DNA of 64,000 nucleotides from contig OZ244905.1 of NCBI GenBank assembly GCA_965221695.1, forward strand, positions 512,001-576,000, in the 5' to 3' direction. Below are positions 5,141 to 36,851 of the stretch, piece after piece; position 1 is the first letter of the stretch; each line of letters opens with the position of its first letter. The notes below the pieces were generated by a model, which had not been told where the DNA came from, did not search any database, and saw only the letters and a program-made list of their open reading frames with translations. The translations under genes and the position numbers were made by a program. Source of the DNA: Gammaproteobacteria bacterium (GTDB lineage Bacteria; Pseudomonadota; Gammaproteobacteria; Eutrophobiales; Eutrophobiaceae).

Positions 5141-5275
5141 GTTTTAGCAGGAACTGCAATTTGTAGGGATGATATTATCGTTATCCAACTTCCCAACATC
5201 GTAGAAATTGTCATCTCTCTGCTGGCCTGCGCCAGGATCGGCGCGATAGCCAGTCCTGTGCCAGTGAGTTATCAA
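5141..5275 (+). pseudogene. Remnant of an AMP-binding (acyl-CoA synthetase) gene
   Basis: Frame from 5141 reads VLAGTAICRDDIIVIQLPNIVEIVISLLACARIGAIASPVPVSYQ, matching the GDxVxxxLPN...LACARIGA segment of adenylate-forming enzymes; no start codon, and it runs into the gspN 3' end. Confidence 0.6.
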
Positions 5276-5820
5276 TTATTTTCAGGCGCTATTGCAGCGT
5301 TTGCTTCTCTGTTATCGTCTTGTGCCGGTTTGACTGTGAGTTTTACTTGTTTGTAACGCGCGTCTTTTTTCAGCGTAATGCTGTCGGCCTCCAATCTCTC
5401 CAGAGTCCAGCCTTCAAATGTCTGACCCGGTCTGAGTTTTTTCAGTTTTTCGTTTGCGTCAGTATAGACCAGCACAAAACGTTGATCTTCACTGATAACA
5501 ACCGCCGATAACAAAATCTTTCTGGGATTTTCCTGTCTGTCGACAGATATTGGAGGTGGGGGAATGTAGGGCCTGCGGTCTTGTCTGAATAACGGTCGTT
5601 CAATGATCTCCGAGTATGCGCTGATTGGCGAAACGGCATTGTCCGTCATATCGTTCTCCCTGATCGTCATTGCTTGCGCCTGGCCATGCGGCGCTGTGAC
5701 GGCAAGCAACTGAAAAGGGGAAACTAACTCATACACCATCAACCCTGAAAATAACATGCAAAAAACTGACATGATTGCCTGTGCGAATAGCATAATGCGC
5801 GGATTTATTACATAACTCAT
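5272..5820 (-). CDS. gspN: Type II secretion protein, XpsN/GspC-like
   Basis: N-terminal TM, ERPLFRQDRRP motif, L-x-x-G-Q-T-F-E-G-W-T-L HR-like domain; follows gspL-gspM. Confidence 0.7.
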   Translation of the reverse strand: MSYVINPRIMLFAQAIMSVFCMLFSGLMVYELVSPFQLLAVTAPHGQAQAMTIRENDMTDNAVSPISAYSEIIERPLFRQDRRPYIPPPPISVDRQENPRKILLSAVVISEDQRFVLVYTDANEKLKKLRPGQTFEGWTLERLEADSITLKKDARYKQVKLTVKPAQDDNREANAAIAPENN

Positions 5821-5852
5821 ATCGTGTATATAACGTTAAGCAGTCTGGAAAA

Positions 5853-6434
5853 TTATGGCGGCTCAGTCCGATAGATATACGCGGCCACATCAAGGTGAAC
5901 CTCCAATTCATCTGCGCCATCATCCTCATCATAATCGCTTGCGCCATCATAATATTGCACAAGCAGATTATCCACGAACAACAAAGGACTGCTCAATGTC
6001 ATGCTGTACAACAATTGCTGCAAGACTTCGAGACTGCCGCGCAAATGCACATTGACAACGATTTCAGGAAAAACGTTTTCGTTTTCTCTTTCCGGTAGGA
6101 CTTGCGCGCTGATGATATAACCACCTGCTTCCCTGACCAGAGTTTGTATTAGTTGTTGTAAATCCGCTGCAGCCAGTGACCTGGTTTTATCTTGAAAAAA
6201 TCCGTCTTCGTTGATTTTCAGGTCGGCTAGCTGCTCCAGCTCTGTCTGCAGAATTTCATTGCTCGCGGCGGCCCTGGTAAATGTCAGATATTGTGATTGC
6301 AGGGTTTCCATGCGCTGGCTAACAGCTTGACGATTCATCAGCGCCGGCAAGATCAAAACGAAGAAAATAAGTCCTCCCAGCACAATGGTCAGACCAACGG
6401 AAAAAACAATATGCTGCCAGGGTTTTACGTTCAT
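5853..6434 (-). CDS. gspM: Type II secretion protein M (XpsM type)
   Basis: Single N-terminal TM, coiled coil, LAAADLQQLI and PLLFVDNL motifs; coupled to gspL. Confidence 0.8.
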   Translation of the reverse strand: MNVKPWQHIVFSVGLTIVLGGLIFFVLILPALMNRQAVSQRMETLQSQYLTFTRAAASNEILQTELEQLADLKINEDGFFQDKTRSLAAADLQQLIQTLVREAGGYIISAQVLPERENENVFPEIVVNVHLRGSLEVLQQLLYSMTLSSPLLFVDNLLVQYYDGASDYDEDDGADELEVHLDVAAYIYRTEPP

Positions 6435-7531
6435 TTGGGCGTTAATCTGGCGGAAATATGAAAATGCTCTTTATCATCGATATTATTTTTCGTCACTGAA
6501 GAAATGAATTGCGCATGTTCAAAATAAGGGGATGCTTCAATCATCCGGATCAAGGATGATGCCGCAGTCGCTTCCCCATGAATCTGAAGTTCTCTGTTTC
6601 GGATAAGCAAGTGATAAATCCAGGTGTCATCTGGAAGGCGATGAGTCAGTTCCTGCAACAGAATGATCATCGGAGCGCTCTCATTGCGTCGAGCAGACAA
6701 AAAGTCAATGCGCTGAAGCAGGGCTGTTTTTTTGTCTTCAAGCGTCTGCGCGCGCGCAGCCTGAATTCTGCTGACCTCCACCTGTTCTGCAGCCCGTTTA
6801 AGCGCCAGGTCATAGCGCGCTAATGGTATGTATAATGATGAAAAAAATAATATCGTCAGTAGCAGGAAAAGGAACTTTAAGCGCCGTTCATATGAATTAT
6901 TCTTGTTATTGTTGTTGTTCGGCAGAAAATTGACAGATACCGGCGTGGAGTCATCGCTGACCGTGACAATCGACGGTGTCAAATCCAGGAAACACAGACT
7001 GTCCAGGTGTTTCCGCACAACTTTACGCAAAACCACATACAGATCGACGCGCAACTTCTCGGTTATTGTATCTTTGCCGGTGATAATATAGTCAAAATAG
7101 ACCATTTCCTTTCTGAAAGGGGTTTGTTTATCCATCTCGAAATTCATTATGCCCCGCAAATCTCCCTCACAAGACAGGGGATAACTGAGATGTTTTTGCA
7201 AGCATTGCTGCTGCGGCAACAACAGGACCAGTTCCAGGTCCTTTGCATTCTGATTTAGCCAATGATTAATAGCCGACTGCCCCTGCTTATCATTCAGGCT
7301 GAGCGCCTGTTCCCGAACTAACTGCCGGTCGGAGCCATCATATTGTTTGAACAGCAGTGTATTATTCTGCGCTTCAATCGTTACCTTGACAGAAGTATGG
7401 CGCAGTCGGGTCAGCCAGCGCGCGGGCAACAGCAGCAACCACCCTTTGAGCCACCAGTTGAGGAAATCATGGAATCTTTTCTTTGCAACAATTTTATGCA
7501 GGTATGCTGACAAATTTAATCCTGAAGCCAT
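6431..7531 (-). CDS. gspL: Type II secretion protein L (PilN-domain, XpsL type)
   Basis: FLNWW, FEMDKQTPF, TM, ELTHRLPDDTW and LIRMIEASPYF motifs. Confidence 0.82.
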   Translation of the reverse strand: MASGLNLSAYLHKIVAKKRFHDFLNWWLKGWLLLLPARWLTRLRHTSVKVTIEAQNNTLLFKQYDGSDRQLVREQALSLNDKQGQSAINHWLNQNAKDLELVLLLPQQQCLQKHLSYPLSCEGDLRGIMNFEMDKQTPFRKEMVYFDYIITGKDTITEKLRVDLYVVLRKVVRKHLDSLCFLDLTPSIVTVSDDSTPVSVNFLPNNNNNKNNSYERRLKFLFLLLTILFFSSLYIPLARYDLALKRAAEQVEVSRIQAARAQTLEDKKTALLQRIDFLSARRNESAPMIILLQELTHRLPDDTWIYHLLIRNRELQIHGEATAASSLIRMIEASPYFEHAQFISSVTKNNIDDKEHFHISARLTPK

Positions 7532-7558
7532 TCACTCGAAACTGTAGTCTGAGCGCCA

Positions 7559-8269
7559 TTACAACATTTGCTCTTTATGGGTGCGTATCAGCTCCAGCGC
7601 ATCCCTGATAATAATCATTGCCGCTCTGGACGCCGCTGTTGGTCTGCCGGCGACAATAGCGTCCGCTACAGCTTCATGCTCATCCACATTGGCAAGACTC
7701 ACGCCCTTGTATCGGTTCGTGAGGCGAATGCTGAAATGCAGGGCCGTGCCAATCAAATCGCGTAGCTGGCTGATAAATCGATTGCCACTTGCATCAAGCA
7801 CAGCAACATGAAAAGCAAGGTCAGATTCCAACGGGTCATCGTCGCCCAGTTCAGCGGCGCGCATACGCGCCACGCTTTTTTTAATCTGCAACAAATGTTT
7901 GTCATCCGCCCGTTTTGCCGCCAGCGCCGCTGCTTGAGGCTCCACCGCCATTCTGATTTCGGTAAATTCTTCCAACAAGTTTATATCCAGTTTACGTTTG
8001 AGCAGCCATTCCAGCACATCCGGATCGAGGCTGTTCCAGTTTTCTTCGCGTTCAACCCAGGTGCCGTGACGCGGACGCGCGGCCAGCAGACCCTTGGCCG
8101 TCAACATTTTCACTGCCTCCCGTAACACGCTGCGGCTGGCGCCGAACTTTTCACACAGTTCCGATTCGATAGGAAATTTCTTGTCGAACGTGTAAACGCC
8201 GGCGACTATATCTGCTCCTAAATTTTGCACGATGGAATTTGTCAGATTACTTCGATATCTGTTACGCAT
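7559..8269 (-). CDS. FadR/GntR-family transcriptional regulator, probable galactose/galactonate regulator
   Basis: GntR wHTH (ESELCEKFGASRSVLREAVKML..KGL), NSLDPDVLEW and FCD domain (DLAFHVAVLDASGN). Confidence 0.9.
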   Translation of the reverse strand: MRNRYRSNLTNSIVQNLGADIVAGVYTFDKKFPIESELCEKFGASRSVLREAVKMLTAKGLLAARPRHGTWVEREENWNSLDPDVLEWLLKRKLDINLLEEFTEIRMAVEPQAAALAAKRADDKHLLQIKKSVARMRAAELGDDDPLESDLAFHVAVLDASGNRFISQLRDLIGTALHFSIRLTNRYKGVSLANVDEHEAVADAIVAGRPTAASRAAMIIIRDALELIRTHKEQML

Positions 8270-8355
8270 GTTGTACCCCTCATTAGACCAACAACCTGCT
8301 TAAAGTAAATTAATAATTGAAATTATCAGTCATTCTATTCTCTTAGTTAGAACCG

Positions 8356-8515
8356 TTAAGAAACCTCTGATTAAATCAGAGTTTCCTGCGATACAGGGAT
8401 GTATCGTCAAATCCAATGACAGCAAGTCATTGAATTTGTGAACACAACAAAAAATCTCAATTTTGTTTTAGGCGCTCTGACAACTCCAGAATGGACTTGT
8501 TCAGAACTTACTTTA
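8356..8515 (+). mobile_element. MITE copy 1 (IS5-like ends, degenerate right end)
   Basis: TTAA-GAAACCTCTGATTAA...GGACTTGTTCAGAACTTAC; alignable over its length with 63724-63882. Confidence 0.8.
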
Positions 8516-8686
8516 TGCATATCTGGTTCGACCAGAATATTATTTATCATATTATATACACTCTGCTATCCAAGTAACAATTTAACTTTTCAACAACCTT
8601 CCGACGCTGGCGACAGGCAGCAGTCATGATAAAAATCAACTGCTGATACGGACTTTTCAAAAATATGACTTGCAAAAATCAATATC

Positions 8687-8714
8687 TTTATATAATATTA
8701 TTTATATTATTATA
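8687..8714 (+). promoter_or_regulatory. AT-only putative operator/promoter upstream of the 1276-aa gene
   Basis: 8699-8714 TATTTATATTATTATA is the exact reverse complement of 13637-13652. Confidence 0.5.
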
Positions 8715-11700
8715 TGCCAACCAAAGCGAAATGTACCATGAAATATAAACCGCGTAGTTTCCCGATAATATTAGTTTGTATATGGGTCTTCTCTCTATTG
8801 GCTATACCGACAGCATCCTTAGCTGAGAGGCAACGCTATATGTACGCCGATGGACATGGCATCATTTCCAGTTACGATATCAGGAAGTTGGATGTTTCGT
8901 ATAGAGATGTTGTAAAAATTAACATTAGCGAACTTTTCAATGCAAAATTAGATTCCAAACATGCCTCTTACGGTATCAAGGGCAGGGTCAAAAATCCGGG
9001 CAAACCGGATGCAGGTTGGATGGATTTAAAGATATATGCATTTGATCAAAATCTGGGCAAGCATATTATTTATCATGTCAGGTTGGATCACGACAGTCCG
9101 GATCATTTCTCGACCGGCACGCCGCAAACAGAACATATCGAATTATTTGACAAAAAAAAATCCTTCAAGGGAACTGAAATTAAAGAACTCCTGCAGTCGA
9201 TTGAACATTCTTTCACCCTCAATAAAGAAGGCTTCTTACGGCATGTGAGAGAAAGCGCGACACTCAGACAAAATGAGAAGGTGATATCCAAATCTACCGT
9301 TGCAGGGGCAATTATAGGGGGAGCGCTCGGCATAGGTATTGGCACGCTGACTGCGCCAGCAACCGCCGGCGCTTCTTTTGTAGCGATGCCACTTATTGGC
9401 GCCAGTATCGGAGCAAGCATCGGAAAAGGGATTGATCTTACTAATAATACACCTACACTTTTAGATGACTATGTAATTTATACGGGTTTGGATAAGGCAA
9501 ATATTGATGATCTGAACAAGAATTCGAGAATAGTTCCTGTTGGTATGTACCCTGTGCTGGTCGTTCTGGAGATGAAAGATGCCTGGTTTTACGGCGCAAG
9601 AGTACCCGGCATACCGGATGATGCCCTTGATGTTGATGCATTCCTCACGTTGAGCAAAAACCCCGATGCTTCACAAACAGAACATGACCTAACATCAACG
9701 TTTTGGCATAAGGACCCGGGCGTGTTGGATGAACTTGATAAAGAAATAATTTCTGTATCTGAAATCCAATCAGCGCTTACCTCTTCTGACTATAAACACC
9801 CCCCTCGCGTAAAACTGACTGTAAATCCGGGAACTCCAGTGCAAGCTTCCTATACTTATGAACCCGGAGGCCATATTGCCTCGCCACCAACCTTCATAAT
9901 GGGGGATCATATCCTTTTGGAAGTTATTGTTCCAACCTCGGGCAAACCCTTTCAACCCTCAAACCCCCAACATTACCCAAAGCTGAGCGGGTTCCCGTTT
10001 GCGTGGTTGGCATACTTTGGCGGAGAAGCATTGTACCAATGCGAACCTTCCATACAACCTGGTGAATGGCGTCCCTGGTTGGGCTATGATTCTCAGGTGC
10101 ACGGCGCTGCTATTCGCAGTTACCCTAAAGACTTCGATCCGAAATTTAACCCTTGGGTAGTGGATCTGACAAGTCACCCAAAAAAACATGTGGTGTTCAG
10201 GTGGTCAGCCAAGTTGACTCGTCGAATGGACAGTTCCAAGCCTGCATACCATAGCGTATACACTTGGCCAAAACAGAAAACTACGCCTGTTACCCAGCGT
10301 AACAATCAGAAGGAGGGGCTAAACATGGAACTGTTGCGAGCCTGGAAAGATCATACCAAGGCAACTGACTCGGAACCGGACTTTACCGATTATAACGGCA
10401 ACAGGATTTTACCTGGTCTGGATCCGGATGAATTCCTGTTTCTTCGTGATTCTCACCGAAAAATTACGGATAGCATCACGCTCAGTGGCGAACCATGGAA
10501 AACCGTGCCAGACGATGAGGCGGCCAATCCGCTCAATGATATTGTCACCGCTTATAAGAAAAACCGTACCTGGCATGTGGACAGGTTGGATTATCGCGCA
10601 GCGTATGGCGCAAACTATGCTGCCGCAAACTACGAGATTCAGGATCTCGGTACCAGCCCCAAAGCTCCCGATGGCAACGCAACCGGAAATAATACTGCTC
10701 CTGGCGCTTTCACAGTCATACTGCCTTCATTCGTACATGGAGAAAAGAAGATACCGATCAAATTGAATGTCAAAGCTCCCTTGGAACATGACAAAGGATA
10801 TTATGGAAATATCGAAGCCAAAATACACCCAGCTTCCTGGGAGAGGGGGCTGTCTTATACTGTAACTGGCCTACACGGCGCTGAGATAGACAGGTACGCA
10901 GTATCTTTCATCTACGAAGACTCTTTAGGTATACGCCGGTATTCGTCATATTTCCTTAGCAACGAACCCAAAAAGGTCAAACAAGACGCAATAAGAAAGG
11001 GCAAATGGTTGATCACGATACCCGGCCTGCTTGGTTACGGTTACTACACGATTAATTTATGGCATAAGAATCCACGCTATAAAGATTCATGGACTCGGAT
11101 TGGCGGCAAAGAACTGCTGGATATCAATTTACGCTTTCTCAGTGTGCCTGGCCGCACAATCGGCGGCGAACGCTATCCAGGCGGCGCTGATTTAAAGGAG
11201 TCGCCAGGGGATGGCGCCTATATCTACGTCGATGATTACCGGGATAAGAAAAGTGACGGCTTTATGAAATCCAAACTGCATCGCTACTGGCGCAACTATG
11301 TGCGCACGTATGTCTTCGAAACATATGAAACCAGCACTTTTGAGATTCTGGACGCCGACCCGCATACGTTTACCCATCGGGGGACCGAGTGGTATCTATC
11401 CGCCCGAACGCAAGCCAAGCGGATTACTGATGCGGAACTGGAAGACAGAATACGTTTTTACGTCGACCCTGTTGATGAGCACGGCAATGTGGAAGAAGAC
11501 TACATCATTGAAGGAACCGGAAAAAAGTTCACCAAATCATGGCATTACGCCGGAACCTATCAACTTAAGGCGGTATACAATGGCACATCTTCCATCTCAC
11601 ATCGGATCGTAGTGGTGGATCCCGGGAAGCGCAATTCCACTAGCGATAAAGGGGATATCAGTTACCGTAAACTACATTATCAGGAAATAGATTGGCTGAA

Positions 11701-12544
11701 GTACAACAAGGTGGACCTTGGCAGCGGCTCAAAAAATGAGATCAGAAACCGTTGGCTGCTGTTCTCAATTGATAACATCAACAGTTTGTATCGCTACAGA
11801 ACCGGGCCCCGAGTAAACACAGGCAACCAGGTTAACCGTTTTCATCCGGGCAATGATTATGCCGACAGCTATCGATGGAACTTTTACTATCTTAAGAATA
11901 GTGGTGACGAAACAAACGCCAGTCATAGAGATGTTGCGCCTCACGGTCTGAAAGAATTACTGGCTGATAAGAGGAGCGCTCTTGATGGAGTAGCCTGGTT
12001 TCCCCGTAACCTGGTTCGGCATACTTCTGAGAAAAATGCGCAGGGCATACCTATGCCTAATGACCTCTCCAAAAAGAAAATAAGTCATTTCTCCAGCCTG
12101 TCACAAGATCAGAAGAAGCGTATTATTAATCTCTTTACCAAGGATCTTCCCGAGCCTTGGCAAGTGCGTCTGCCGTGGATATCATTTGTCAAAGATCCTA
12201 GCCCCTGGAAGGATCATGCGGACACCTGGCATTATCGCACTCGCACCAACATCAAAGTGATCTATGATATGAACGCCTTCTTTGATAATAACCACGGCGC
12301 TTTCAGTGGCAATCCGCCGGATATAACCGGTGGCGATGATAGTTATGAAAACCTGCTGAAACGAGGAATTTATCTGAATCTTATGAGTGATGAGATAAAA
12401 AATCGCCGTTCATTCTTCCAGAAATTGTTGAAAGCGCGGTATATTATCGCGCCTTCCAACAGTATAAATGGCGGTTATCAGGGCGTGCAGGTATATAATC
12501 TGAAAGATTCCGATACTATCATCGCCGAGAGGTTATTTCATTAA
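8714..12544 (+). CDS. Large secreted hypothetical protein (signal peptide, glycine-zipper hydrophobic hairpin, PKD-like motif)
   Basis: 1276-aa uninterrupted ORF; likely start 8738 (MKYKPRS...TASLA signal peptide); VAGAIIGGALGIGIG...LIGASIGASIGKG segment; no family recognised. Confidence 0.8.
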   Translation: MPTKAKCTMKYKPRSFPIILVCIWVFSLLAIPTASLAERQRYMYADGHGIISSYDIRKLDVSYRDVVKINISELFNAKLDSKHASYGIKGRVKNPGKPDAGWMDLKIYAFDQNLGKHIIYHVRLDHDSPDHFSTGTPQTEHIELFDKKKSFKGTEIKELLQSIEHSFTLNKEGFLRHVRESATLRQNEKVISKSTVAGAIIGGALGIGIGTLTAPATAGASFVAMPLIGASIGASIGKGIDLTNNTPTLLDDYVIYTGLDKANIDDLNKNSRIVPVGMYPVLVVLEMKDAWFYGARVPGIPDDALDVDAFLTLSKNPDASQTEHDLTSTFWHKDPGVLDELDKEIISVSEIQSALTSSDYKHPPRVKLTVNPGTPVQASYTYEPGGHIASPPTFIMGDHILLEVIVPTSGKPFQPSNPQHYPKLSGFPFAWLAYFGGEALYQCEPSIQPGEWRPWLGYDSQVHGAAIRSYPKDFDPKFNPWVVDLTSHPKKHVVFRWSAKLTRRMDSSKPAYHSVYTWPKQKTTPVTQRNNQKEGLNMELLRAWKDHTKATDSEPDFTDYNGNRILPGLDPDEFLFLRDSHRKITDSITLSGEPWKTVPDDEAANPLNDIVTAYKKNRTWHVDRLDYRAAYGANYAAANYEIQDLGTSPKAPDGNATGNNTAPGAFTVILPSFVHGEKKIPIKLNVKAPLEHDKGYYGNIEAKIHPASWERGLSYTVTGLHGAEIDRYAVSFIYEDSLGIRRYSSYFLSNEPKKVKQDAIRKGKWLITIPGLLGYGYYTINLWHKNPRYKDSWTRIGGKELLDINLRFLSVPGRTIGGERYPGGADLKESPGDGAYIYVDDYRDKKSDGFMKSKLHRYWRNYVRTYVFETYETSTFEILDADPHTFTHRGTEWYLSARTQAKRITDAELEDRIRFYVDPVDEHGNVEEDYIIEGTGKKFTKSWHYAGTYQLKAVYNGTSSISHRIVVVDPGKRNSTSDKGDISYRKLHYQEIDWLKYNKVDLGSGSKNEIRNRWLLFSIDNINSLYRYRTGPRVNTGNQVNRFHPGNDYADSYRWNFYYLKNSGDETNASHRDVAPHGLKELLADKRSALDGVAWFPRNLVRHTSEKNAQGIPMPNDLSKKKISHFSSLSQDQKKRIINLFTKDLPEPWQVRLPWISFVKDPSPWKDHADTWHYRTRTNIKVIYDMNAFFDNNHGAFSGNPPDITGGDDSYENLLKRGIYLNLMSDEIKNRRSFFQKLLKARYIIAPSNSINGGYQGVQVYNLKDSDTIIAERLFH

Positions 12545-12703
12545 AGAAACTCTGAACAAGTCCATCCTGGACTTGTCAGAGTACGGAAAACAAAAATGCG
12601 ATTTTTGTTTTCCTCACAATATCAATGCCTTACAGTCATTGATATTGACGATACATCCTTGTATCGCAGGAACCTTTGAGAGGCTTAATCAGAGGTTCCT
12701 TAA
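12541..12703 (-). mobile_element. MITE copy 2, flanked by TTAA on both sides
   Basis: Near-identical reverse complement of 63724-63882; TTAA at 12541-12544 and 12700-12703. Confidence 0.88.
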
Positions 12704-29963: not shown

Positions 29964-30004
29964 TTCTTGCAGTTGTTGAATTTCTCGATGCGCCATTGCT
30001 TGTC

Positions 30005-30086
30005 TTTTTTGCGCCTATGGGCACGTGCTCCCTCAACCAGAGCTACGGCTATGCTATCGGTCGCAGGCGCCCATAGGCACAAAAAA
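30005..30086. terminator. Long inverted repeat between convergent genes, probable bidirectional terminator
   Basis: TTTTTTGCGCCTATGGGCAC (30005-30024) vs GCGCCCATAGGCACAAAAAA (30067-30086): 18/20 complementary, 42-bp spacer. Confidence 0.45.
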
Positions 30087-30096
30087 TCCGGCGCAA

Positions 30097-30990
30097 TCAT
30101 CGCATCGCCTGGTGAGATATCCGGGCTGATCTGTTTTCTTCCCATGACAGCGCCAGGTAAGGACGGCTTGTATTTCCACTCAACAATATCACCATATCCA
30201 GTTTTACCCTGCTTTGGCCAACAATGCCTTCGCTGGTGACGGTGAAAGTTCTGTCTCTGTGTGAGATAAAATACTCGCTGCCTGCATCCGGTATCACAGC
30301 ATTCGCGCCAGTTTTCTTGCGAGAAGCCAGAAATTTGTTTATTTGCGCTGCATCGCTGCCTGGCAACGCCAACAAAAGTTCTCTTGGCGCCACCATAGGA
30401 TTAATCCCCGGCAGTAATGAATGAACAGTCAGCAGCGGATGGATTTTCACATAGATTTTATTGTTCACCCCCGCTACCAGGCGCAGTTCATCAATGCTGT
30501 TAAAAGGTCCGTCTTTGGCGTCATAATCTACGTTGTTATAGTCACTGTCTTCAGCGCCTGATCGGCGCCGGTTACTGTCGCGGTCGCGCCAGTCAAGTAT
30601 GGCATCAAGCAGAAACGGCGTTTGCTTATCATCTCCTGCCACAGTCTTAATGACAGCATGAAGTAATTCAGGATTGGCTGTATTCAGGTCAATTTTTCCG
30701 GCTTCATCCTGAATCCGCAAATTAATTTTCTGTGTGGCAAAATTGATTGCAACTGTGCTTCCGTCCGTCGGCCACCGCCGTTTTGGCGGCGGCTTTAATA
30801 AATCCGACACCGCCAGCCACAGCCCCGCCTCAGCGATAGCCTTGGTCCTCGCTATCTCGACAATATGAACGGTAAGCTGTGTTTCTATACGCGTCGCATA
30901 ACTGTAGCCGGTAGCCATTATGGTAAGCAAGACCAGGAGCCAAAGCGTCAATACCAATACGACCCCTGCTTGTTTTGGCCTATCCCGCAT
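30097..30990 (-). CDS. gspK: Type II secretion minor pseudopilin K
   Basis: QAGVVLVLTLWLL, IQDEAGKIDLN, AILDWRD, GAEDSDY and PFNSIDEL motifs. Confidence 0.92.
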   Translation of the reverse strand: MRDRPKQAGVVLVLTLWLLVLLTIMATGYSYATRIETQLTVHIVEIARTKAIAEAGLWLAVSDLLKPPPKRRWPTDGSTVAINFATQKINLRIQDEAGKIDLNTANPELLHAVIKTVAGDDKQTPFLLDAILDWRDRDSNRRRSGAEDSDYNNVDYDAKDGPFNSIDELRLVAGVNNKIYVKIHPLLTVHSLLPGINPMVAPRELLLALPGSDAAQINKFLASRKKTGANAVIPDAGSEYFISHRDRTFTVTSEGIVGQSRVKLDMVILLSGNTSRPYLALSWEENRSARISHQAMR

Positions 30991-31037
30991 TTGTCAGCAG
31001 TCCGCTTGTTGCTATCGCAAACATCTGAGAAATGCGG

Positions 31038-31742
31038 CTATGCGCCAAAATTATCTTCTTCCGAGTTCAGGGTCAACTGCGGTTGCCCGTGACTGACCTG
31101 GGCCCTGAGAGCAATCACCAACTCGGGCCATTGTGCCGCTTGATCAGTGATAATCCGCAGCCGCAGCAAGTCAGGCAAACGCTCGCTGTTATTCCAATGG
31201 TTGCGCCAGGTCATCGGGCTTTCCTCATTGTCTCGCCCAAAATAATCCAGGTTAATCGTCCTGATATGCTTAATCAGGCTGATTTCATTTACTGAGCCCG
31301 GAAAACTGTTCTCATGTAACCGGGTTTTGTAACGTATCAGTGGCAGGTAGATGAGCGCCAACTCATCCCCTCTCATTTTCAGTTGCAGGAAATGCAGGCC
31401 GCTGCCGGCATGATGAGCCGGGAGTCTCGATACAAAATGTAAAGAAGAATTATTGCCGTTAAACAGCACGCGTTGTTCTCCTGCTCCCGTCAGGAGAACC
31501 GGCGCTGTTTGCTCGAGCAAGCGGCGCATGAATGATACGACTAAACGTTTATCATCGTTTTTCATGGTATGAATTTCACTTGCGCGCCAACTGTGACCCG
31601 CAGAATAAAGGCTGCCATAGAGCATAACCAGTATGAGGCTGAATAATACCAACGCTATCAACGTCTCCATCAAGGTAAAGCCGGTTACAGCGCCAGGACG
31701 AGAATCAACCCCGGTCTGATTTTCATTGTATTTGCCAGGCAC
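31038..31742 (-). CDS. gspJ: Type II secretion minor pseudopilin J
   Basis: Prepilin motif GFTLMETLIAL; W...W....RLP...WPELVI C-terminus; position in operon. Confidence 0.85.
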   Translation of the reverse strand: MPGKYNENQTGVDSRPGAVTGFTLMETLIALVLFSLILVMLYGSLYSAGHSWRASEIHTMKNDDKRLVVSFMRRLLEQTAPVLLTGAGEQRVLFNGNNSSLHFVSRLPAHHAGSGLHFLQLKMRGDELALIYLPLIRYKTRLHENSFPGSVNEISLIKHIRTINLDYFGRDNEESPMTWRNHWNNSERLPDLLRLRIITDQAAQWPELVIALRAQVSHGQPQLTLNSEEDNFGA

Positions 31743-31748
31743 GGTATC

Positions 31749-32144
31749 TCAGCGTGTTTTGATTAGTTTGAGCGTTTGTATATCCACCCGCTTTATCTTG
31801 CCTCGACTTACCCAGCTCACCCTGGAACTGAACATCATCAAGGTATACGGAGGTGATGTGAAACCTATTTGGTAGTTTTCATTCATATAGTCATCTATGC
31901 GGATCTCCCAATCATATTTATTGTCTACTCTACCGCGCTTTTGAAAACCAAGTATTTTGTGATCGGCTGAAACGCCAGCCAGTTTGGCTTCGGCAATTGC
32001 TGATGCTTGCGCATATTCGTTTGCAAGTGTCATTGCAGTCGCCCCTTTAGCATAGATTTGGAAAATAATACCTAAAGACGCGGCAGTGATGGTGAAAGCG
32101 ACCAGGACTTCAATCAGGGTAAATCCGTAGAGGCGTCGGGACAT
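31749..32144 (-). CDS. gspI: Type II secretion minor pseudopilin I
   Basis: GFTLIEVLVAF prepilin motif; size and position. Confidence 0.85.
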   Translation of the reverse strand: MSRRLYGFTLIEVLVAFTITAASLGIIFQIYAKGATAMTLANEYAQASAIAEAKLAGVSADHKILGFQKRGRVDNKYDWEIRIDDYMNENYQIGFTSPPYTLMMFSSRVSWVSRGKIKRVDIQTLKLIKTR

Positions 32145-32145
32145 A

Positions 32146-32589
32146 TTATTGGTTATTGGCAGTCACCCGGCCGGTTATCCAGTCTACCTGGATATAAGCA
32201 ACAAACTCTCCTTGTTGCATACGAATTTGTCCTCCCGTTGAACTGCCGTCGGGGTAGAAGCGGATGGCGCCTTCATGCGACGATAGCTGCTCCTGTTGCG
32301 CGGTGACCAAGGCGAGGGTTACATCATCCGGAAGATGCAAATCACGGCGCTTGCCTGTAACAGACATCGAACCCTCCTCCACATTGAGGTCAAGCGTTAC
32401 CGATTGTCCCGATCTCATGGCAGAACTCCTGGCCAGGCGTAAGCCGGAAACCAGTTCCCGTTGCGCGCTTTTGATTTGCATATTCTCAATACTTCCGGGC
32501 AGCAATGGCAACGTAATGGCTGACAGCAATGCCAAAATACTCAACACAATGAGTAGCTCGAACAAGGTAAAACCGCTTTGTGAAAACAT
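32146..32589 (-). CDS. gspH: Type II secretion minor pseudopilin H
   Basis: GFTLFELLIVL; IRFYPDGSSTGG and VDWITGRV motifs. Confidence 0.9.
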   Translation of the reverse strand: MFSQSGFTLFELLIVLSILALLSAITLPLLPGSIENMQIKSAQRELVSGLRLARSSAMRSGQSVTLDLNVEEGSMSVTGKRRDLHLPDDVTLALVTAQQEQLSSHEGAIRFYPDGSSTGGQIRMQQGEFVAYIQVDWITGRVTANNQ

Positions 32590-32603
32590 TTTCTGCAGAC
32601 TGG

Positions 32604-33830
32604 CTAAATCACGAGTTCATTCATGCTGAGAACAGCCTGTAATACCGCGATAATGATGAGCGCGATCAAGCCACCTAAAATCAGGATCAGTATCGGTTCA
32701 AGGATGGTTAATAAACGTTTCGTAACAGTACGCGTCTCATTGTCACAGATATCGGCAATCTTTATCAGCATGGTTTCCAATTGGCCACTCTCTTCACCAA
32801 TCTCGATCAGTTGCACCGCCAAATCAGGACATACGCCTGAGTCTTTCAAAGGTTTCGTCATAGACTGACCTTGTTCAAGATTAGTCGCCATGGCGCTGAC
32901 TATCCGGGCGATGAAACGATTGTTTATCAACTCTTTGACCAGTCCGATACCAGTCAGCAAGGGCACACCATTAGTCACAGCCGTGCCTAGAGTGCGCGCG
33001 AATCTTGCCATCTCCATTTGTTTGATAATAACGCCGATGTAAGGCAGGTTTAGACGCCATCTGTCGAAGCGCAAACGGAAGGCGGCATTTGATAAACATT
33101 TATCTATGCTCCAGAACAAGATTACAAACAAGCACAACAACGCCCACCAATATTGTTGGAACAGCGCAGAGAACGAAAAGACAACCCGTGTTAGCCAGGG
33201 CAAACTGTAGTTCGCATCATCAAACAACAGCACAAATTCCGGCACGACAAATAACATCAGGACAATCAGCGACAAAATCGAAAACCCTACCAGCACAGCC
33301 GGATAGATCAGCGCAGTAATTACAGAAGCGCGCAGTTCTGACATGCGTTCCAGAAAATCAGCCAGGCGTTTGGTCACCACATCCAAGGCGCCACTGGCCT
33401 CCCCGGCTTTGATCATATTGATATATAAATTATCGAATACACCGGACTGCGCCGCCAGCGCTGCCGATAAGCTTGCGCCGCTTTGTATTTCCTGTAACAG
33501 ATTTTGCAATAACCGCTGTGCCGGCGGGGCAAGGTCAAGCTGACTTAAAATACGCAGCGCATTATCCAACGGCAAGCCTGCTTCCAATAATGTTGCCAGT
33601 TCCCGGGTAATCAGATTCAACTCTTTCTGTGTGATTTTGTTTTGTTGCCGCCAAAATGAAGAGCGTATTAAATCAAACCAATTCCCGGACCTGATTTCTT
33701 CGGCGCTTACAGGTAAATAGCCTGCGCTCTGCAATTTGATAATGGCTGACTCTTTGGAAATGGCGTCTATTACGCCCTGAAAAGTCTCACCCTTTTGGAG
33801 AGAGACTGCTTTGTATTTGAACTGAGGCAT
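32604..33830 (-). CDS. gspF: Type II secretion inner-membrane platform protein F
   Basis: ELATLLEAGLPL, AGEASG, ALIYP, IGEESGQL and LEP motifs. Confidence 0.93.
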   Translation of the reverse strand: MPQFKYKAVSLQKGETFQGVIDAISKESAIIKLQSAGYLPVSAEEIRSGNWFDLIRSSFWRQQNKITQKELNLITRELATLLEAGLPLDNALRILSQLDLAPPAQRLLQNLLQEIQSGASLSAALAAQSGVFDNLYINMIKAGEASGALDVVTKRLADFLERMSELRASVITALIYPAVLVGFSILSLIVLMLFVVPEFVLLFDDANYSLPWLTRVVFSFSALFQQYWWALLCLFVILFWSIDKCLSNAAFRLRFDRWRLNLPYIGVIIKQMEMARFARTLGTAVTNGVPLLTGIGLVKELINNRFIARIVSAMATNLEQGQSMTKPLKDSGVCPDLAVQLIEIGEESGQLETMLIKIADICDNETRTVTKRLLTILEPILILILGGLIALIIIAVLQAVLSMNELVI

Positions 33831-33848
33831 TGCGCGCGCTGATTTGCG

Positions 33849-36020
33849 TCAAGAAGCGCTTTTTTGCGGATATTGTTTGGGAGGGGTTAGCCCGCGCAGC
33901 TTGCGCTTGAATTCTTCAGTTACTTCCCTTGCCTCATTACGGTTGCGTATCACTTGCGGCGTAATCATCACCAACAGTTCGGTGCGCCGCAGTTCATCTC
34001 GGCTATTCCCAAACAGCCTGCCCAGAAGAGGAAGCCTGTAAAGGATGGGTATGCCGGACTTGGCATCGGCTGCCGTATCCTGTATCAGCCCTCCCAGTAT
34101 AATTGTTTCCCCTGAATTGATCGCGACGGCGCTTTGAATCTGGCGCTGCTGGATGGTCGGCGCGTTAAGACTGGATGAAGCGGTAGCGACAGCATTGCTG
34201 ACTTCCTGTTCGATTTCCAACGTCACCAGACCGCTGCTGTTGACCCGCGGCGTCACCGTCAATGATACGCCTGTTTGCCTGAATTGGATCTCGTTGACCG
34301 TCGGCGCATCCGGGTTGATATTGCTGATAGATTGACGAGTAGGGACAGGAATTTCATTGCCGACTTTTATAACCGCCGTCTGATTATCCAATACCATCAA
34401 AGATGGTGAAGATAATACGTTGACTTCTGTCTCCTCCTGCAAAGCGTTTAATGCAAATCGAACCCGGTCAGCATTGTCTATCACAGTATAGGAGAACGAG
34501 GGACTCAGCGCAGAGATGCCGGAATTACCCAAATCCAGAATGCCGCGACCTTCGTTTATATTTCCACCTTCAATATTGTTCTTAAAATACCACTCAACAC
34601 CGAAATCGAGTTCATCTTTCAAACTGACTTCAACAATACTCGCTTCAATCAACACCTGTAAAGGCGCTACATCCAGCTTGACGAGGGCCGCCTTAACCAT
34701 CTTGTAATCCTGGGGCGTGGCAAGGATTACCAGAGCATTACGCACATCATCGGCGATGATTTCGACCGATTGCTCAGACGGCAAAGCCATTCCCGCGCCT
34801 GCATGGCCAGGGGCCTGAATTGTATCCAACCGGCTATCAGCCAAACCGCTGCTCACGGATTGGCTGTCATCTGCACTGATCTCCACCGGCCGCAGACCGG
34901 GCGCCAATCCGGCCTGCGGTATAGTTTGCGCGCCTGCAGATGCGGCCGAAAAAATCTGTCCAAGAATCCTGCCCAGGTCTATCGCCTTGGCATTTTGCAC
35001 ATTATAGACATACAAATGTTTACCGATTGCCTCGCCCGGCCGGTCCAGACGGTGTATCCAAATCTCAACCTCTCTCAGCGCGGACTGTGTGGAACTTATC
35101 AACAGTATTGATTGAAGTCGTTTAATCGGCACGGTTCGCACCAACCCGCCAAGCAGCTCATTGCCGGGTTCAATATCGATCGCGCCGATGATACTTTCCA
35201 GTTCATTTCTCATTATCTCAGCATCGACATATTCCAATGGGTACAGACCAACCGACATTCCGCGTAACCAATCGACATCAAAAACTTCCACCGCATCTTG
35301 TAACGCGGTTATTTTTTGCCGTGTGCCGGAAATAATGAGCAGGTTTCTTTTGCGGTCTATACGGAGTTCACCGCCTTCTGTCATAAACGGCTCCAGGATC
35401 TTTTGCATCTCCTGGGCCGCAATAAATTTAAGCGGGATGATTCTGACCGAGTGGCCTGCAACAATCTCTCGTGACAAGAGCGGTGACAGGTTGTTATTCA
35501 GAGAGTGACTCTTTGGCAGCGCCTGGTATAGGTTATCTTTGCGTAGCAGCGTTGCGCCATTCATAGCCAGGATATTTTCCAGCAACTCCGGCAAACCTGA
35601 TTTATCGAACGGCTGCGCGGTGGCTATCGTAACTTTTCCTGTCACACCCTCGTCTATAATATAATTCACTCCCAACAAGTCGCCTAACACTACCTTGATA
35701 AATTCCCTGATATCCGTATCCTCAAAGTTCAGGATAATATTGCCTTCAACATCGACTTCTTTATCTTTTGGCGGCGCGGTGGCAACATATTCACCTGTGC
35801 CAAGTTCCAGAATTTGCTGCCTGCCTTTTCTAAGAGGTCGTTGCAGGTTTGGTGAAATGACAGCTTTTCTATCGTCCTCGAGAGGCAAGGCCTCAACATC
35901 GCCGGTTTCCGTCCTGATCTGTGCTGGCACGGACTTTTCCTGAACAGGCGCCTGACTGCAAGCCGCGACGGCTAACAGCAAGATGAACGAAATTGACAAA
36001 AAATGTGCTCGCATACACAT
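33849..36020 (-). CDS. gspD: Type II secretion secretin D (lipoprotein, XpsD type)
   Basis: Lipobox LLAVAAC; LNFEDTDI, FDVDWL, QVLIEASIVEV, LSSPSLMVLDN and GIPILYRLPLLGRLF motifs. Confidence 0.95.
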   Translation of the reverse strand: MCMRAHFLSISFILLLAVAACSQAPVQEKSVPAQIRTETGDVEALPLEDDRKAVISPNLQRPLRKGRQQILELGTGEYVATAPPKDKEVDVEGNIILNFEDTDIREFIKVVLGDLLGVNYIIDEGVTGKVTIATAQPFDKSGLPELLENILAMNGATLLRKDNLYQALPKSHSLNNNLSPLLSREIVAGHSVRIIPLKFIAAQEMQKILEPFMTEGGELRIDRKRNLLIISGTRQKITALQDAVEVFDVDWLRGMSVGLYPLEYVDAEIMRNELESIIGAIDIEPGNELLGGLVRTVPIKRLQSILLISSTQSALREVEIWIHRLDRPGEAIGKHLYVYNVQNAKAIDLGRILGQIFSAASAGAQTIPQAGLAPGLRPVEISADDSQSVSSGLADSRLDTIQAPGHAGAGMALPSEQSVEIIADDVRNALVILATPQDYKMVKAALVKLDVAPLQVLIEASIVEVSLKDELDFGVEWYFKNNIEGGNINEGRGILDLGNSGISALSPSFSYTVIDNADRVRFALNALQEETEVNVLSSPSLMVLDNQTAVIKVGNEIPVPTRQSISNINPDAPTVNEIQFRQTGVSLTVTPRVNSSGLVTLEIEQEVSNAVATASSSLNAPTIQQRQIQSAVAINSGETIILGGLIQDTAADAKSGIPILYRLPLLGRLFGNSRDELRRTELLVMITPQVIRNRNEAREVTEEFKRKLRGLTPPKQYPQKSAS

Positions 36021-36053
36021 AACAGAACTCAGTACAGTACTGGTAAAGATATT

Positions 36054-36074
36054 TTATAATATTTATATTATATA
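36054..36074. promoter_or_regulatory. Putative operator between divergent gspD and dgoA
   Basis: TTATAATATTTATATTAT (36054-36071) is the exact reverse complement of 13641-13658. Confidence 0.55.
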
Positions 36075-36188
36075 CTCTAAAAAAGTTAAGAATGATATTT
36101 TTGCCAGAGTCGCCTTTCAGACGCCACAGTTTGATGGTATATCAGATACAATCGTTCCCTGCGCCTACAATGGAAAAACACCTGATGA

Positions 36189-36851
36189 ATGAGTCGAATG
36201 ATGCAAAATGAAACTACAAAAAACGACAGCGAGTTGCGTAAATTGCCAATCATTGCGGTACTGCGCGGGATCAATCCAGAGCAAGTCGTAAGTGTGGGAG
36301 AGGCGCTGACCCAGTCCGGTATTATGATCATGGAGGTCACGCTGAATTCGCCGTCGCCTTATACGTCTATTCAAAGACTTTCGCAACGGTTTGCAACGGA
36401 GATACTGGTGGGCGCCGGCACAGTCACCCGTGTGGAACAAGTGCATAAAGTCAAGCAAGCAGGCGGCCGCCTTATCGTAGCGCCGAACATGGATACGGAT
36501 GTGATTCAGAGCGCAAAATCGCAAGGGTTACTCGCCATCCCCGGCTGTTTCACACCAACGGAAGTGTTTACCGCAATCAAGGCGGGCGCCGATGCGATTA
36601 AGCTGTTTCCGGCAGAAATGCTATCCCCCGCAGCCGTCAAGGCAATGCGCGCGGCGCTGCCAGCGGATCTGATGCTGTTTGTGGTGGGAGGGATCAATGC
36701 CGGCAACATGCTGGACTACCTGCGGCAAGGAGCGGATGGCGTCGGAACAGGATCGTCTTTATATAAACCGGGAAAAACCCTGTCAGACATAGCTGCCGAC
36801 GCTACAGCGCTTGTGCAGACTTTCAACGCTGGGAATCCAGTCAAACTATGA
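36189..36851 (+). CDS. dgoA: 2-dehydro-3-deoxy-6-phosphogalactonate aldolase
   Basis: LPIIAVLRGI, EVTLNSP, VGAGTV, KLFPAE, VGGI and GSSLYKPG motifs. Confidence 0.88.
   Translation: MSRMMQNETTKNDSELRKLPIIAVLRGINPEQVVSVGEALTQSGIMIMEVTLNSPSPYTSIQRLSQRFATEILVGAGTVTRVEQVHKVKQAGGRLIVAPNMDTDVIQSAKSQGLLAIPGCFTPTEVFTAIKAGADAIKLFPAEMLSPAAVKAMRAALPADLMLFVVGGINAGNMLDYLRQGADGVGTGSSLYKPGKTLSDIAADATALVQTFNAGNPVKL

Follow-up and report, generated by a model that had tools for sequence, protein, structure and literature searches.

The window analysed here, a stretch of 64,000 nucleotides (contig OZ244905.1, positions 512,001 to 576,000) of a gammaproteobacterium known from its genome alone, carries genes for the degradation and import of galactan, a plant-type polymer, that are interleaved with a second, incomplete T2SS copy and a two-barrel outer-membrane importer. 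Pfam and NCBIfam profile matches confirmed the gene identities and coordinates of the locus, and with them the assignment of these gene families to galactan/galactose utilization that had been made in an earlier, sequence-only reading of this DNA. The features are the following.

5272-5820, minus: gspN (XpsN/GspC-like), with weak XpsN and GspC matches (E 5e-5 to 6e-4); 33% identity to the N of the main cluster
5853-6434, minus: gspM (XpsM type), PF10741 E 2e-25, NF040576 126 bits (cut-off 60); 42% identity to main M
6431-7531, minus: gspL, PilN domain E 7e-14; 45% identity to main L
7559-8269, minus: GntR/FCD-family regulator (PF00392 and PF07729)
8695-8710: AT palindrome site 1, ATATTATTTATATTAT, shortly before the 1276-aa gene
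8714-12544, plus: 1276-aa exported protein with signal-peptide-like N-terminus
12700-13608, minus: SMP30/gluconolactonase-family lactonase, PF08450 E 2.5e-71
13641-13656: AT palindrome site 2, ATAATATAAATATTAT, in the divergent promoter region between lactonase and SDR
13699-14496, plus: SDR sugar dehydrogenase, XylB-like at 271 bits, below the cut-off of 400
14493-16271, plus: IlvD/EDD-type sugar-acid dehydratase (Pfam, NCBIfam)
16288-17478, plus: GH53 endo-beta-1,4-galactanase (Pfam, NCBIfam) with signal-peptide-like N-terminus
17493-19076, plus: SSF sodium:solute symporter (Pfam, NCBIfam)
18995-21451, minus: GH2 beta-galactosidase-like protein with GH2 domains, GalA/GalB-like at 266 bits (below cut-off), signal-peptide-like N-terminus
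21445-27954, minus: 2169-aa fusion of signal peptide, FN3 array, autotransporter-type barrel, linker and TBDR
28056-28071: AT palindrome site 3, ATATTATTTATAATAT, in the divergent promoter region between the TBDR and 588-aa genes
28197-29963, plus: 588-aa fibre-like protein with a common C-terminal domain of ~150 aa and a coiled coil
30097-36020, minus: gspD-F-H-I-J-K operon of the accessory T2SS set, comprising the next six genes
30097-30990, minus: gspK, T2SSK domain
31038-31742, minus: gspJ
31749-32144, minus: gspI
32146-32589, minus: gspH, GspH domain
32604-33830, minus: gspF, PF00482 E 7e-53, TIGR02120 384 bits, below the cut-off of 424
33849-36020, minus: gspD, TIGR02517 470 bits (cut-off 351), with Secretin, Secretin_N and N0 domains
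36056-36071: AT palindrome site 4, ATAATATTTATATTAT, in the spacer between gspD and dgoA
36189-36851, plus: DgoA-like 2-dehydro-3-deoxy-6-phosphogalactonate aldolase, NF006600 257 bits (cut-off 207)

The 22.5 kb between gspK and gspL are taken up by the sugar genes, the FN3-barrel-TBDR gene and the 588-aa and 1276-aa ORFs. The genes from SDR to SSF (13699-19076, plus) probably constitute one operon, and the start of the GH2 gene overlaps the end of the TBDR gene. The entanglement of sugar and T2SS genes at both ends, already described in the sequence-only reading, was confirmed and is seen also in relatives: the regulator gene lies upstream of gspL on the same strand at a distance of 27 nt, with gspL-M-N tightly packed downstream of it, and dgoA is divergent from gspD across a spacer of 168 nt. 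Orthologs of the GntR regulator in the loci of two relatives, G005 and G010, are 67% identical.

For the catabolism of galactose, the KDPGal aldolase DgoA of the De Ley-Doudoroff pathway is present. Candidates for its dehydrogenase, lactonase and dehydratase are the SDR (below cut-off), SMP30 and IlvD/EDD proteins; the classical DgoD belongs to another family than IlvD/EDD. DgoK gave no match (PF05035) in the whole one-contig genome, so that the route is incomplete as annotated; in the relatives G001, G005 and G010, dgoK adjoins dgoA. Five PfkB kinases are encoded in the genome and might substitute for DgoK.

The accessory T2SS set comprises the secretin GspD, the platform proteins GspF, GspL, GspM and GspC/N (the latter by weak matches) and the minor pseudopilins H, I, J and K, with GspH, N_methyl and T2SSK domains. 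The prepilin motif G|FTLxE is kept in H, I and J, a lipobox is present in GspD, and the gaps between D and F and between F and H are 18 and 14 nt, respectively. Neither GspE nor GspG had a match within the window, where a weak match to GspG corresponds to the N-terminus of gspH only. The sole GspE and the sole GspG above cut-off in the genome (C1:1923050-1924573 and C1:1925846-1926241) belong to a complete E-F-G-H-I-J-K-L-M-N-D cluster at C1:1922786-1933026, 1.4 Mb from the window, and the single prepilin peptidase of the genome is encoded at 1.54 Mb. The gsp genes of the window are Xps-type paralogs of this cluster (33-57% identity). Being a paralog of a full system elsewhere and devoid of the ATPase GspE and the major pseudopilin GspG, the set cannot act alone, and the whole T2SS assumed in the sequence-only reading must be given up; of the layout described there, D, F, H, I, J, K and L, M, N on one strand and ~22.5 kb apart were recovered, while the order is not canonical and gspE and gspG are missing.

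None of the nine gsp ORFs is disrupted, and their lengths match those of the paralogs. The window copies keep 68-94% of the columns that are otherwise invariant, namely 210/224 for D and 112/125 for F, and, window versus main copy, 85/105 versus 85/90 for L, 46/60 versus 46/49 for M and 21/31 versus 21/22 for N. They evolve faster than the main copies, the D of the window having a long branch (0.56). Their GC3 is lower, at 0.53 versus 0.64 in the case of D. A model of the GspE-GspL complex (residues 1-175 of main E with 1-215 of window L) passed with a score of 0.66 (best of three controls, 0.01), at a mark that 58/80 solved complexes and 2/110 mismatched pairs reach; the runs share at least 82% of contacts, with a partner pLDDT of at least 75. 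Since E-L complexes of other T2SSs have solved structures, this result indicates likeness and is not proof of binding by the window copy. Judged by their sequences, the T2SS genes of the window look constrained, and the accessory T2SS is probably functional and would borrow E and G.

The 2169-aa fusion consists of eight FN3 domains (~25-815), a first barrel (~895-1276), an acidic linker with a TonB-box-like IEEVKV, and a plug and TBDR barrel (1337-2168). The autotransporter part proposed in the sequence-only reading was borne out by a match to PF03797 (31 bits, cut-off 26, E 2.7e-7, residues ~897-1109, with residues 790-1339 scanned alone), and the homolog in G001 reaches 43.6 bits. The first barrel was modelled with ~18 strands, a provisional number, and it aligned best with barrels of 16-19 strands (FhaC, Z 15.5, rmsd 5.6, 277 aligned; VDAC1, Z 15.0, rmsd 4.2, 254 aligned); autotransporter barrels gave Z 11.8-12.8 over its first ~250 residues only, and the BrkA beta-domain a Foldseek E of 1.5e-5 (TMt 0.51-0.55). 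About 890 residues of TBDR follow this barrel, so that it is not the C-terminal 12-strand barrel of type Va autotransporters. Positions 2-868 of the 868 of TIGR01782 (TonB-Xanth-Caul) are matched by residues 1337-2168 from end to end (535 bits), and both the plug and the barrel Pfam domains are present. This receptor part starts at ~1330, behind 1,300 residues, instead of having its own signal peptide directly before the TonB box, and residues 1271-1375 contain no hydrophobic signal segment. The junction is in one frame in G001, G005, G006, G010 and eight database clusters; no example of the fusion was found outside the genus and metagenome relatives.

The 1276-aa protein is a member of an uncharacterized family linked to GH53. 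Among its 30 homologs, two are fused to GH53 and bear a T9SS tail and two more bear the tail alone (4/30); its model (pLDDT 79) consists mostly of beta-sandwiches, and its gene is flanked by inverted copies (8359-8515, 12542-12706) of a dispersed ~160-bp repeat. The 588-aa protein matches 33,694 representative clusters, mostly through residues ~400-560, and was placed in the Atlas with Bacteroidota 'tail fiber domain-containing' clusters. A gene with the C-terminal domain of the 588-aa protein adjoins the homolog of the 1276-aa gene in 12 of 16 loci. This gene pair is conserved across phyla and frequently lies next to GH53 or is fused to it; a T9SS tail is present in some homologs of Bacteroidota type. 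Sequence comparison thus supports a tie of the 1276-aa protein to GH53, through the fusions, and to export, through the T9SS tails of homologs. None of the three proteins that had been regarded as orphans (2169, 1276 and 588 aa) is one, the first being a fusion conserved in the genus and its metagenome relatives and the others this pair.

The AT-only palindrome of 16 nt, ATAWTATNNATAWTAT, has four exact copies in the 3.54-Mb genome, all of them at promoters of the locus, and had no match in 100 shuffles of the window. Of all runs of A and T in the genome, these four are the longest, and 3/4 overlap the best promoter-like sites. Site 1 overlaps such sites and is accompanied by a copy with one mismatch at 8537-8552, site 2 falls within the spacer and -10 of a promoter-like TTGACT-17-TATTAT (13628-13656), site 3 overlaps promoter-like sites with 10 of 12 positions at 28046-28074 (plus) and 28079-28051 (minus), and site 4 precedes the gspD start codon by 36-51 nt. 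The SDR promoters of G005 and G010 have a different AT-rich palindrome. The common promoter motif suggests that the whole set may be switched on together, which lends support at the sequence level to the co-regulation of sugar and secretion genes proposed in the sequence-only reading.

In four genomes of the genus, the secretin lineage of the locus has galactose/galactan or FN3-barrel-TBDR genes as neighbours. The D of the window groups with those of G001, G005 (galactan locus) and G019 (galactose genes) with a support of 86/86, apart from the main-cluster clade (100/99). G005 has the same gene set in shuffled order (pair, fusion, GH53, GH2, GntR, D, L, M, E, F, H, J, K, N), no G being found in this locus. 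In G001 the orthologous T2SS is complete and the only one of the genome, and is therefore a general system there; it adjoins dgoKA and an FN3-barrel-TBDR gene, in a genome in which no GH53 was found. G019 keeps the secretin alone, and GspE, GspG and XpsM have no match in its genome; in G010 only K, N and a fragment of J are left, with IS genes and the remnant of a TBDR next to them. Loss of the linked T2SS genes is therefore tolerated, and these remnants fit decay as well as function. Split or scrambled clusters are common in the genus (E is 16 kb from F in G018; D is 30-60 kb from the other T2SS genes in G005 and G020), so that the split itself is not special.

The Klebsiella pul genes are laid out divergently and controlled by MalT. 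Their promoters are described as induced with maltose (PMC10790770), and in this sugar-induced system (pulA, pulC-O), as is proposed for the window, T2SS genes adjoin the gene of a polysaccharide-degrading substrate. Pul, however, is a contiguous and complete system that includes a PulE and a PulG, whereas the set studied here is devoid of E and G, split by 22.5 kb and accompanied by a second, full T2SS. A common sugar-responsive control as in Pul may be exerted here through the palindrome at four promoters including that of gspD. In Pseudomonas aeruginosa, XphA and XqhA are paralogs of GspC and GspD that form a hybrid with the Xcp engine; the same principle, extra substrate-facing outer parts on the engine of another system, is proposed from the genes for the window set, in which nine genes (D, F, H-N) including the inner-membrane platform are duplicated instead of two. 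CUT loci of the Xanthomonas/Caulobacter type combine a TBDR and CAZymes with an inner-membrane transporter and a regulator. The locus studied here has each of these (TBDR of the TonB-Xanth-Caul subfamily, GH53 and GH2, SSF, GntR/FCD), with the difference that an FN3 array and a second barrel precede the TBDR in one fused protein and that the locus also contains T2SS genes and the 1276/588 pair. In SusC/SusD PULs of Bacteroidota, surface glycan capture is combined with a TonB-dependent importer, endo-enzymes acting outside and exo-enzymes in the periplasm. The fusion would work alike, but has no SusD lipoprotein; capture would fall to its eight FN3 domains, which are part of the same chain and would be exported through a barrel of their own. 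Type Va autotransporters (BrkA, EspP, Hbp) share the order of signal peptide, repetitive passenger and PF03797 barrel, but the barrel of the fusion is not C-terminal and has ~18 strands in the model. Multi-barrel outer-membrane proteins, with two beta-barrels on one chain and including fusions of different barrels acting in one process, have been described (Solan et al., 2021, PMC8346858), and the 2169-aa protein likewise has two barrels on one chain; 'TonB' does not occur in the main text of that article, and an autotransporter-type barrel with a downstream TBDR was not found in the literature searched.

Taken together, we favor, with a probability of roughly 0.55, one co-regulated TBDR-type feeding locus for beta-1,4-galactan/galactose that has grown inside an old Xps-type T2SS cluster. 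It is possible, with clearly lower probability, that the T2SS of the window is instead a decaying remnant of a complete ancestral Xps-type cluster like that of G001, made redundant by the second complete cluster, and that the galactan enzymes use the main T2SS; the closeness to the sugar genes would then reflect ancestral adjacency to dgoKA and the FN3-barrel-TBDR gene, followed by IS-driven scrambling. The loss of E and G, the lone D of G019 and the fragments of G010, the transposase/IS genes inside the G005 and G010 loci, the faster evolution and lower GC of the window copies, and the G001 cluster already placed beside dgoKA and the FN3-barrel-TBDR gene in a genome without GH53 would all be expected. 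Nine full-length ORFs at 33-57% identity are, however, unlikely for long-dead genes, and the preserved prepilin motifs, lipobox and otherwise-invariant columns, the locus-specific palindrome before gspD and the tight packing of gspL-M-N behind the regulator gene argue likewise against decay. That the sugar genes landed by chance in an unrelated general T2SS cluster, with no functional tie, is in our opinion quite improbable: the frequent interruption of T2SS clusters in the genus would allow it, but the recurrent association of this secretin lineage, the palindrome common to gspD and sugar promoters, and the absence of E and G, by which the set is not a general stand-alone system, contradict it.

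With regard to the palindromes, it is rather doubtful that they represent, instead of the operator of a dedicated regulator, sites of a general nucleoid/silencing protein or AT-rich core promoters in horizontally acquired DNA; if they did, the common motif would be no proof of a common sugar signal. TATAAT-like hexamers on both strands and the overlap with promoter-like sites speak for this, as do the GC content of the pair and the T2SS genes (0.45-0.51 versus 0.55 in the genome), the absence of the motif from the 35 fetched loci of relatives, and the lack of the GT...AC core that GntR operators usually have. Against it, the 7-2-7 architecture is the same in all four sites, the 3.54-Mb genome contains no fifth exact copy, and matches with at most one mismatch outside the locus represent a different palindrome with a CG centre. 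An assembly error joining unrelated pieces, a concern raised in the sequence-only reading, is the least credible explanation and can practically be dismissed. Short-read contigs from two runs of two studies end at 8394/8402 and 12575, but these breaks coincide with a dispersed repeat (132 and 153 BLAST matches in the genome) and are the only ones over the covered 5001-12575; within the extent of these contigs (5001-8394 and 8402-12575) the sequences are identical, all sampled words of 27001-36900 are present in two runs of two studies, the genome is a single 3.54-Mb contig, and G005 independently has the same genes together.

If the locus is indeed one co-regulated feeding locus, GH53 and probably also the 1276-aa/588-aa pair would be exported by Sec and then cross the outer membrane via a T2SS built with the secretin D, pseudopilus tip H-I-J-K and platform F-L-M-N of the window, while the ATPase GspE and the major pseudopilin GspG would be shared with the complete cluster (1.92 Mb) and the prepilin peptidase would be the single one at 1.54 Mb. 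This choice of T2SS substrates is a proposal, as is the attachment role suggested in the sequence-only reading. Galacto-oligosaccharides might be taken up by the FN3-barrel-TBDR protein, whose first barrel would display the FN3 array on the cell surface and whose second would import; they would be trimmed by GH2 in the periplasm, the galactose imported by the SSF symporter and oxidized through the successive action of dehydrogenase, lactonase, dehydratase and aldolase. The four promoters with the AT palindrome may be bound by one regulator, the local GntR protein being the first candidate, which would control gspD-K jointly with the pair, the importer and the sugar genes; gspL-M-N would ride behind the GntR gene. 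In this gammaproteobacterium, part of an old Xps-type T2SS may thus have become the secretion arm of a galactan feeding locus.

The gene order that the sequence-only reading had proposed for this locus was borne out by an ORF listing together with Pfam and NCBIfam scans, and is as follows (window coordinates):

5272-5820, minus strand, gspN-like gene
5853-6434, minus strand, gspM
6431-7531, minus strand, gspL
7559-8269, minus strand, GntR/FCD regulator
beyond the GntR/FCD regulator in map order, plus strand, 1276-aa ORF
next after the 1276-aa ORF, minus strand, SMP30 lactonase
next after the lactonase, plus strand, SDR dehydrogenase, IlvD/EDD dehydratase, GH53, SSF symporter
next after the symporter, minus strand, GH2, then the 2169-aa FN3/TBDR protein
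between the 2169-aa gene and gspK, plus strand, 588-aa ORF
30097-36020, minus strand, gspK, J, I, H, F and D
36189-36851, divergent from gspD, DgoA-type aldolase

The GntR-gspL gap measures 27 nt and the gspD/dgoA spacer 168 nt. The SSF and GH2 frames are convergent and share 82 nt at their 3' ends (18995-19076), and at 21445-21451 the beginning of the GH2 gene overlaps the end of the TBDR gene, which suggests translational coupling. The proposal that these genes form a galactan/galactose utilisation unit also stood, and the unit has a promoter element common to several of its genes. As judged from sequence, the predicted dehydrogenase, lactonase, IlvD-type dehydratase and DgoA-type aldolase are consistent with oxidative breakdown of galactose. 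No DgoK (PF05035) is encoded anywhere in the one-contig source genome, although dgoA is there; in three relatives of the same genus (G001, G005 and G010) dgoK lies directly beside dgoA. DgoK may have been lost as gspD became the neighbour of dgoA (spacer 36021-36188), and the five PfkB kinases of the source genome could be its substitutes.

The promoter element is the palindrome ATAWTATNNATAWTAT, which the genome contains four times without mismatch:

8695, immediately before the 1276-aa gene
13641, in the lactonase/SDR spacer
28056, in the TBDR/588-aa spacer
36056, 36-51 nt before gspD

No match occurred in 100 shuffles of the window and none is expected by chance; every other all-AT run in the source genome is shorter than these four sites, and the best promoter-like sites overlap with three of them. 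A copy with one mismatch lies at 8537, on the GntR-gspLMN side, and the remaining genome matches with at most one mismatch have a CG centre and form a separate motif class. The palindrome was found in 0 of 35 loci of relatives, where looser scans returned only different AT-rich palindromes, one of them at the equivalent place in the SDR promoters of G005 and G010. Of all the sequence evidence, the four exact sites argue most strongly for a common switch of the locus, which would be operated by a putative binding protein. A second palindrome class, AATATCGATATT, occurs in the source genome at G000:C1:191764/191783 and 800514/800551 (paired) and at 32574, 766815 and 790168, and may be the operator for some other regulator.

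A dispersed repeat of about 160 bp with a CTCTGATTnAATCAGAG-type hairpin is present at window positions 8359-8515, 12542-12706 and 63723-63882 as well as genome-wide (132 and 153 BLAST matches, about 80-86% identity), and the 1276-aa gene lies between two copies in inverted orientation. Since these 150-bp inverted repeats are copies of the dispersed element, their interpretation as the borders of a cassette or an invertible element was rejected. The short-read contigs (5001-12700 only, out of 20 kb compared) end at this repeat, where the depth is very high, and a short-read joint from 8385 to 12685 was set aside because it rests on a 20-letter side within the repeat.

The T2SS genes are placed as first described, but the set is only partial, as gspE and gspG are missing from the window. 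The source genome (one contig, 3.54 Mb) encodes a single GspE and a single GspG above the cut-offs, both in a complete main cluster (E-F-G-H-I-J-K-L-M-N-D, C1:1922786-1933026), and one prepilin peptidase for the entire genome. Compared with the main set, the window proteins have equal lengths and 33-57% identity; the genes are an old paralogous set without ATPase and major pseudopilin. Their GC content is 0.45-0.51, lower than that of the main genes (0.49-0.56) and of the genome (0.55). Directly after the main cluster comes a giant open frame that exceeds 2,900 aa (G000:C1:1933224-1942001 and beyond); giant frames of up to about 21,000 aa with the same barrel type at the end occur in relatives too, some of them adjoining T2SS genes.

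Such an incomplete set could be a decaying remnant, a reading that we consider rather unlikely. The window genes are intact, with gaps of 18 nt between D and F and 14 nt between F and H; the motif G|FTLxE is kept in H, I and J, and a lipobox is present in both the window D and the main D. The numbers of conserved columns kept by each copy are listed below; the window copies are therefore constrained, yet faster-evolving than the main ones. Synonymous sites are expected to be saturated at the protein identities concerned, 45-69%.

Table. Otherwise-invariant columns kept, per copy.
D: window 210/224, main 210/216
F: window 112/125, main 112/122
L: window 85/105, main 85/90
M: window 46/60, main 46/49
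K: window 85/104, main 85/94
J: window 52/63, main 52/58
N: window 21/31, main 21/22

A complex model of the main GspE (residues 1-175) with the window GspL (residues 1-215) scored 0.66, with 0.01 for the best of three controls, and passed a mark that 58 of 80 solved complexes, but only 2 of 110 mismatched pairs, attained; contact agreement between runs was at least 82% and partner pLDDT at least 75. E-L complexes from other T2SSs have already been solved, so the pass points to a retained E-binding type of surface, not to binding of this particular pair. Over a remnant we favour, with a probability of roughly 55%, a functional accessory module whose ATPase and major pseudopilin would be borrowed from the main cluster.

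The history of the locus in relatives bears on both readings. The linkage of sugar and T2SS genes claimed from the sequence recurs in several genomes, but so do its scrambling and loss. GH53 was found in four of the 23 genomes of the genus (the source genome, G005, G006 and G010). G005 holds an equivalent gene set inside 47 kb in a different order: IlvD, SDR, SSF, lactonase, GntR, GH2, homologues of the 1276-aa (51%) and 588-aa (54%) proteins, N, a 3601-aa FN3-barrel-TBDR protein, a transposase, a LacZ-type GH2, an FN3-GH16-GH53 protein, D, L, M, E, F, H, J, dgoK, dgoA and K; here E is present and G again missing. G001, whose genome has no GH53, carries a complete contiguous E-to-D cluster with the sole T2SS secretin of that genome, adjoining dgoKA, further sugar genes and a 1861-aa FN3-barrel-TBDR protein. 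In G010, K, N, a J fragment and a TBDR remnant remain among IS genes, GH53, GH2 and catabolic genes. G019 retains a lone, intact-looking secretin (L030, C1:388015-389946, 643 aa), 69% identical to the window D and neighboured by GH2, IlvD, dgoA, SDR and SSF genes, and its genome gave no match for GspE, GspG or XpsM; this secretin could be a leftover, or could serve a function outside any T2SS. Other T2SS clusters in the genus are likewise split, across 16-60 kb. A maximum-likelihood tree of 11 secretins placed the window D with the G001, G005-locus and G019 copies (support 86/86) and the main D with the remaining copies (support 100/99), the branches of the window D (0.56) and the G005-locus D (0.53) being long. 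From these loci and the tree, the linkage goes back a long way and has recurred, but scrambling and loss have as well.

The 1276-aa and 588-aa proteins, previously taken for orphans, turned out to have homologues. The 1276-aa protein has 30 homologues, and its residues 307-1228 align with the N-terminal 1,020 residues of the homologue P0147 at 33% identity (E 8e-117); in P0147 and P0150 this part is followed by a GH53 domain and then a T9SS sorting tail, while P0145 and P0151 have the tail without GH53. In genome contigs the 1276-aa family is present at 16 loci, which belong to Gammaproteobacteria and Opitutales MAGs, Parabacteroides, Alistipes, Sphingobacterium, Flavobacteriaceae and other Bacteroidota. 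A gene with the 588-aa-type C-terminal domain is present in 12 of them, mostly within about 1.5 kb, and GH53 in six, several loci being short contigs. This C-terminal domain is very common (33,694 representative clusters match); despite this, the adjacency of the pair is, by estimate only, far above chance. Neither protein had a usable match in Pfam, NCBIfam or PHROGs, and the 1276-aa protein had no match in Atlas. A model of its residues 295-1239 (pLDDT 79.4) is rich in beta-sandwiches, and no catalytic fold was recognised in this undivided model by Foldseek against the PDB, which returned only long multi-sandwich proteins (TMq about 0.1), or by VIA-align, which returned Ig-like sandwiches at noise level (Z at most 7.9). 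We read the two proteins as a putative exported accessory pair of GH53 galactanases.

In L037, an Opitutales MAG locus from a different phylum, the pair is 43-50% identical to that of the window; the window pair has a low GC content of 0.46 (genome 0.55), a hint that the pair was transferred horizontally. The true start of the 1276-aa protein is uncertain because there are several candidates: the first ATG of the frame (region 8714-8738), which palindrome site 1 abuts, an ATG at codon 9, which yields a clean signal peptide, and the database call, 42 codons later and without signal peptide.

The 2169-aa protein consists of a signal peptide, eight FN3 units at about 99-residue spacing, a first barrel that passes PF03797 if scanned alone, an acidic linker with a TonB-box-like IEEVKV, and a full TonB-Xanth-Caul receptor (TIGR01782, 535 bits). 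A model of residues 850-1500 (pLDDT 62 overall, 80-95 in the barrel) suggests about 18 strands. Foldseek ranked the BrkA beta-domain first (E 1.5e-5, TMt 0.51-0.55); VIA-align ranked 16-19-strand barrels first (FhaC, Z 15.5; VDAC1, Z 15.0), with autotransporter barrels at Z 11.8-12.8 over the first part only. The barrel-TBDR junction lies in one open frame in four of 22 other genomes of the genus (G001, G005, G006 and G010) and in eight database clusters (P0004-P0011). It was found in 0 of 18 sampled genomes outside the genus; 300 further genomes of the class matched only with ordinary TBDRs, via the plug, and the metagenome contigs scanned with the junction contained no relative. Further such fusions lie in other sugar loci (G010:C3:110529-117227 and G001:C12:1823330-1835159) with GH123, GH20, an RpiR regulator, an amidohydrolase and a D-serine-dehydratase-like gene, and the architecture seems to be reused for further glycans. 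Multi-barrel chains have been described as a class (PMC8346858), in a paper whose main text nowhere contains the word TonB; no description of such an FN3-barrel-TBDR fusion was found in the literature covered, which included that main text.

Taken jointly, the locus might combine two linked lineage inventions, a one-chain two-barrel system for FN3 display and TonB-dependent import and an engine-less T2SS cassette, a picture that we offer tentatively and hold to be doubtful as a whole. The autotransporter-type barrel would present the FN3 array at the surface, and the periplasmic linker would tether it covalently to the TonB-dependent importer; so built, the fusion would do in one chain what SusC and SusD do as a pair. 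The secretin, pseudopilus tip and platform would act as a specificity cassette with no engine of its own, which would plug into the housekeeping ATPase and major pseudopilin and export a locus-specific cargo set, including the cross-phylum, GH53-linked pair. Pul is already known as a sugar-induced, substrate-linked T2SS and XphA/XqhA as a hybrid one, so the T2SS part is not a new kind of system; the most novel pieces of the locus are the fusion and the GH53-linked pair.

If the accessory set does run on the ATPase and major pseudopilin of another system, T2SSs could be of modular design, and cells could exchange the substrate-facing parts per nutrient locus while keeping the engine in common, which would bear on how T2SSs select cargo. 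The fusion would represent a natural two-barrel outer-membrane protein joining surface-array export to ligand import, and would then be useful for understanding BAM-dependent assembly and glycan capture beyond Bacteroidota. Moreover, the 1276-aa/588-aa pair, as a widespread uncharacterised GH53 galactanase accessory of Bacteroidota, Opitutales and Gammaproteobacteria, is a candidate for a new galactan-active or galactan-binding module.
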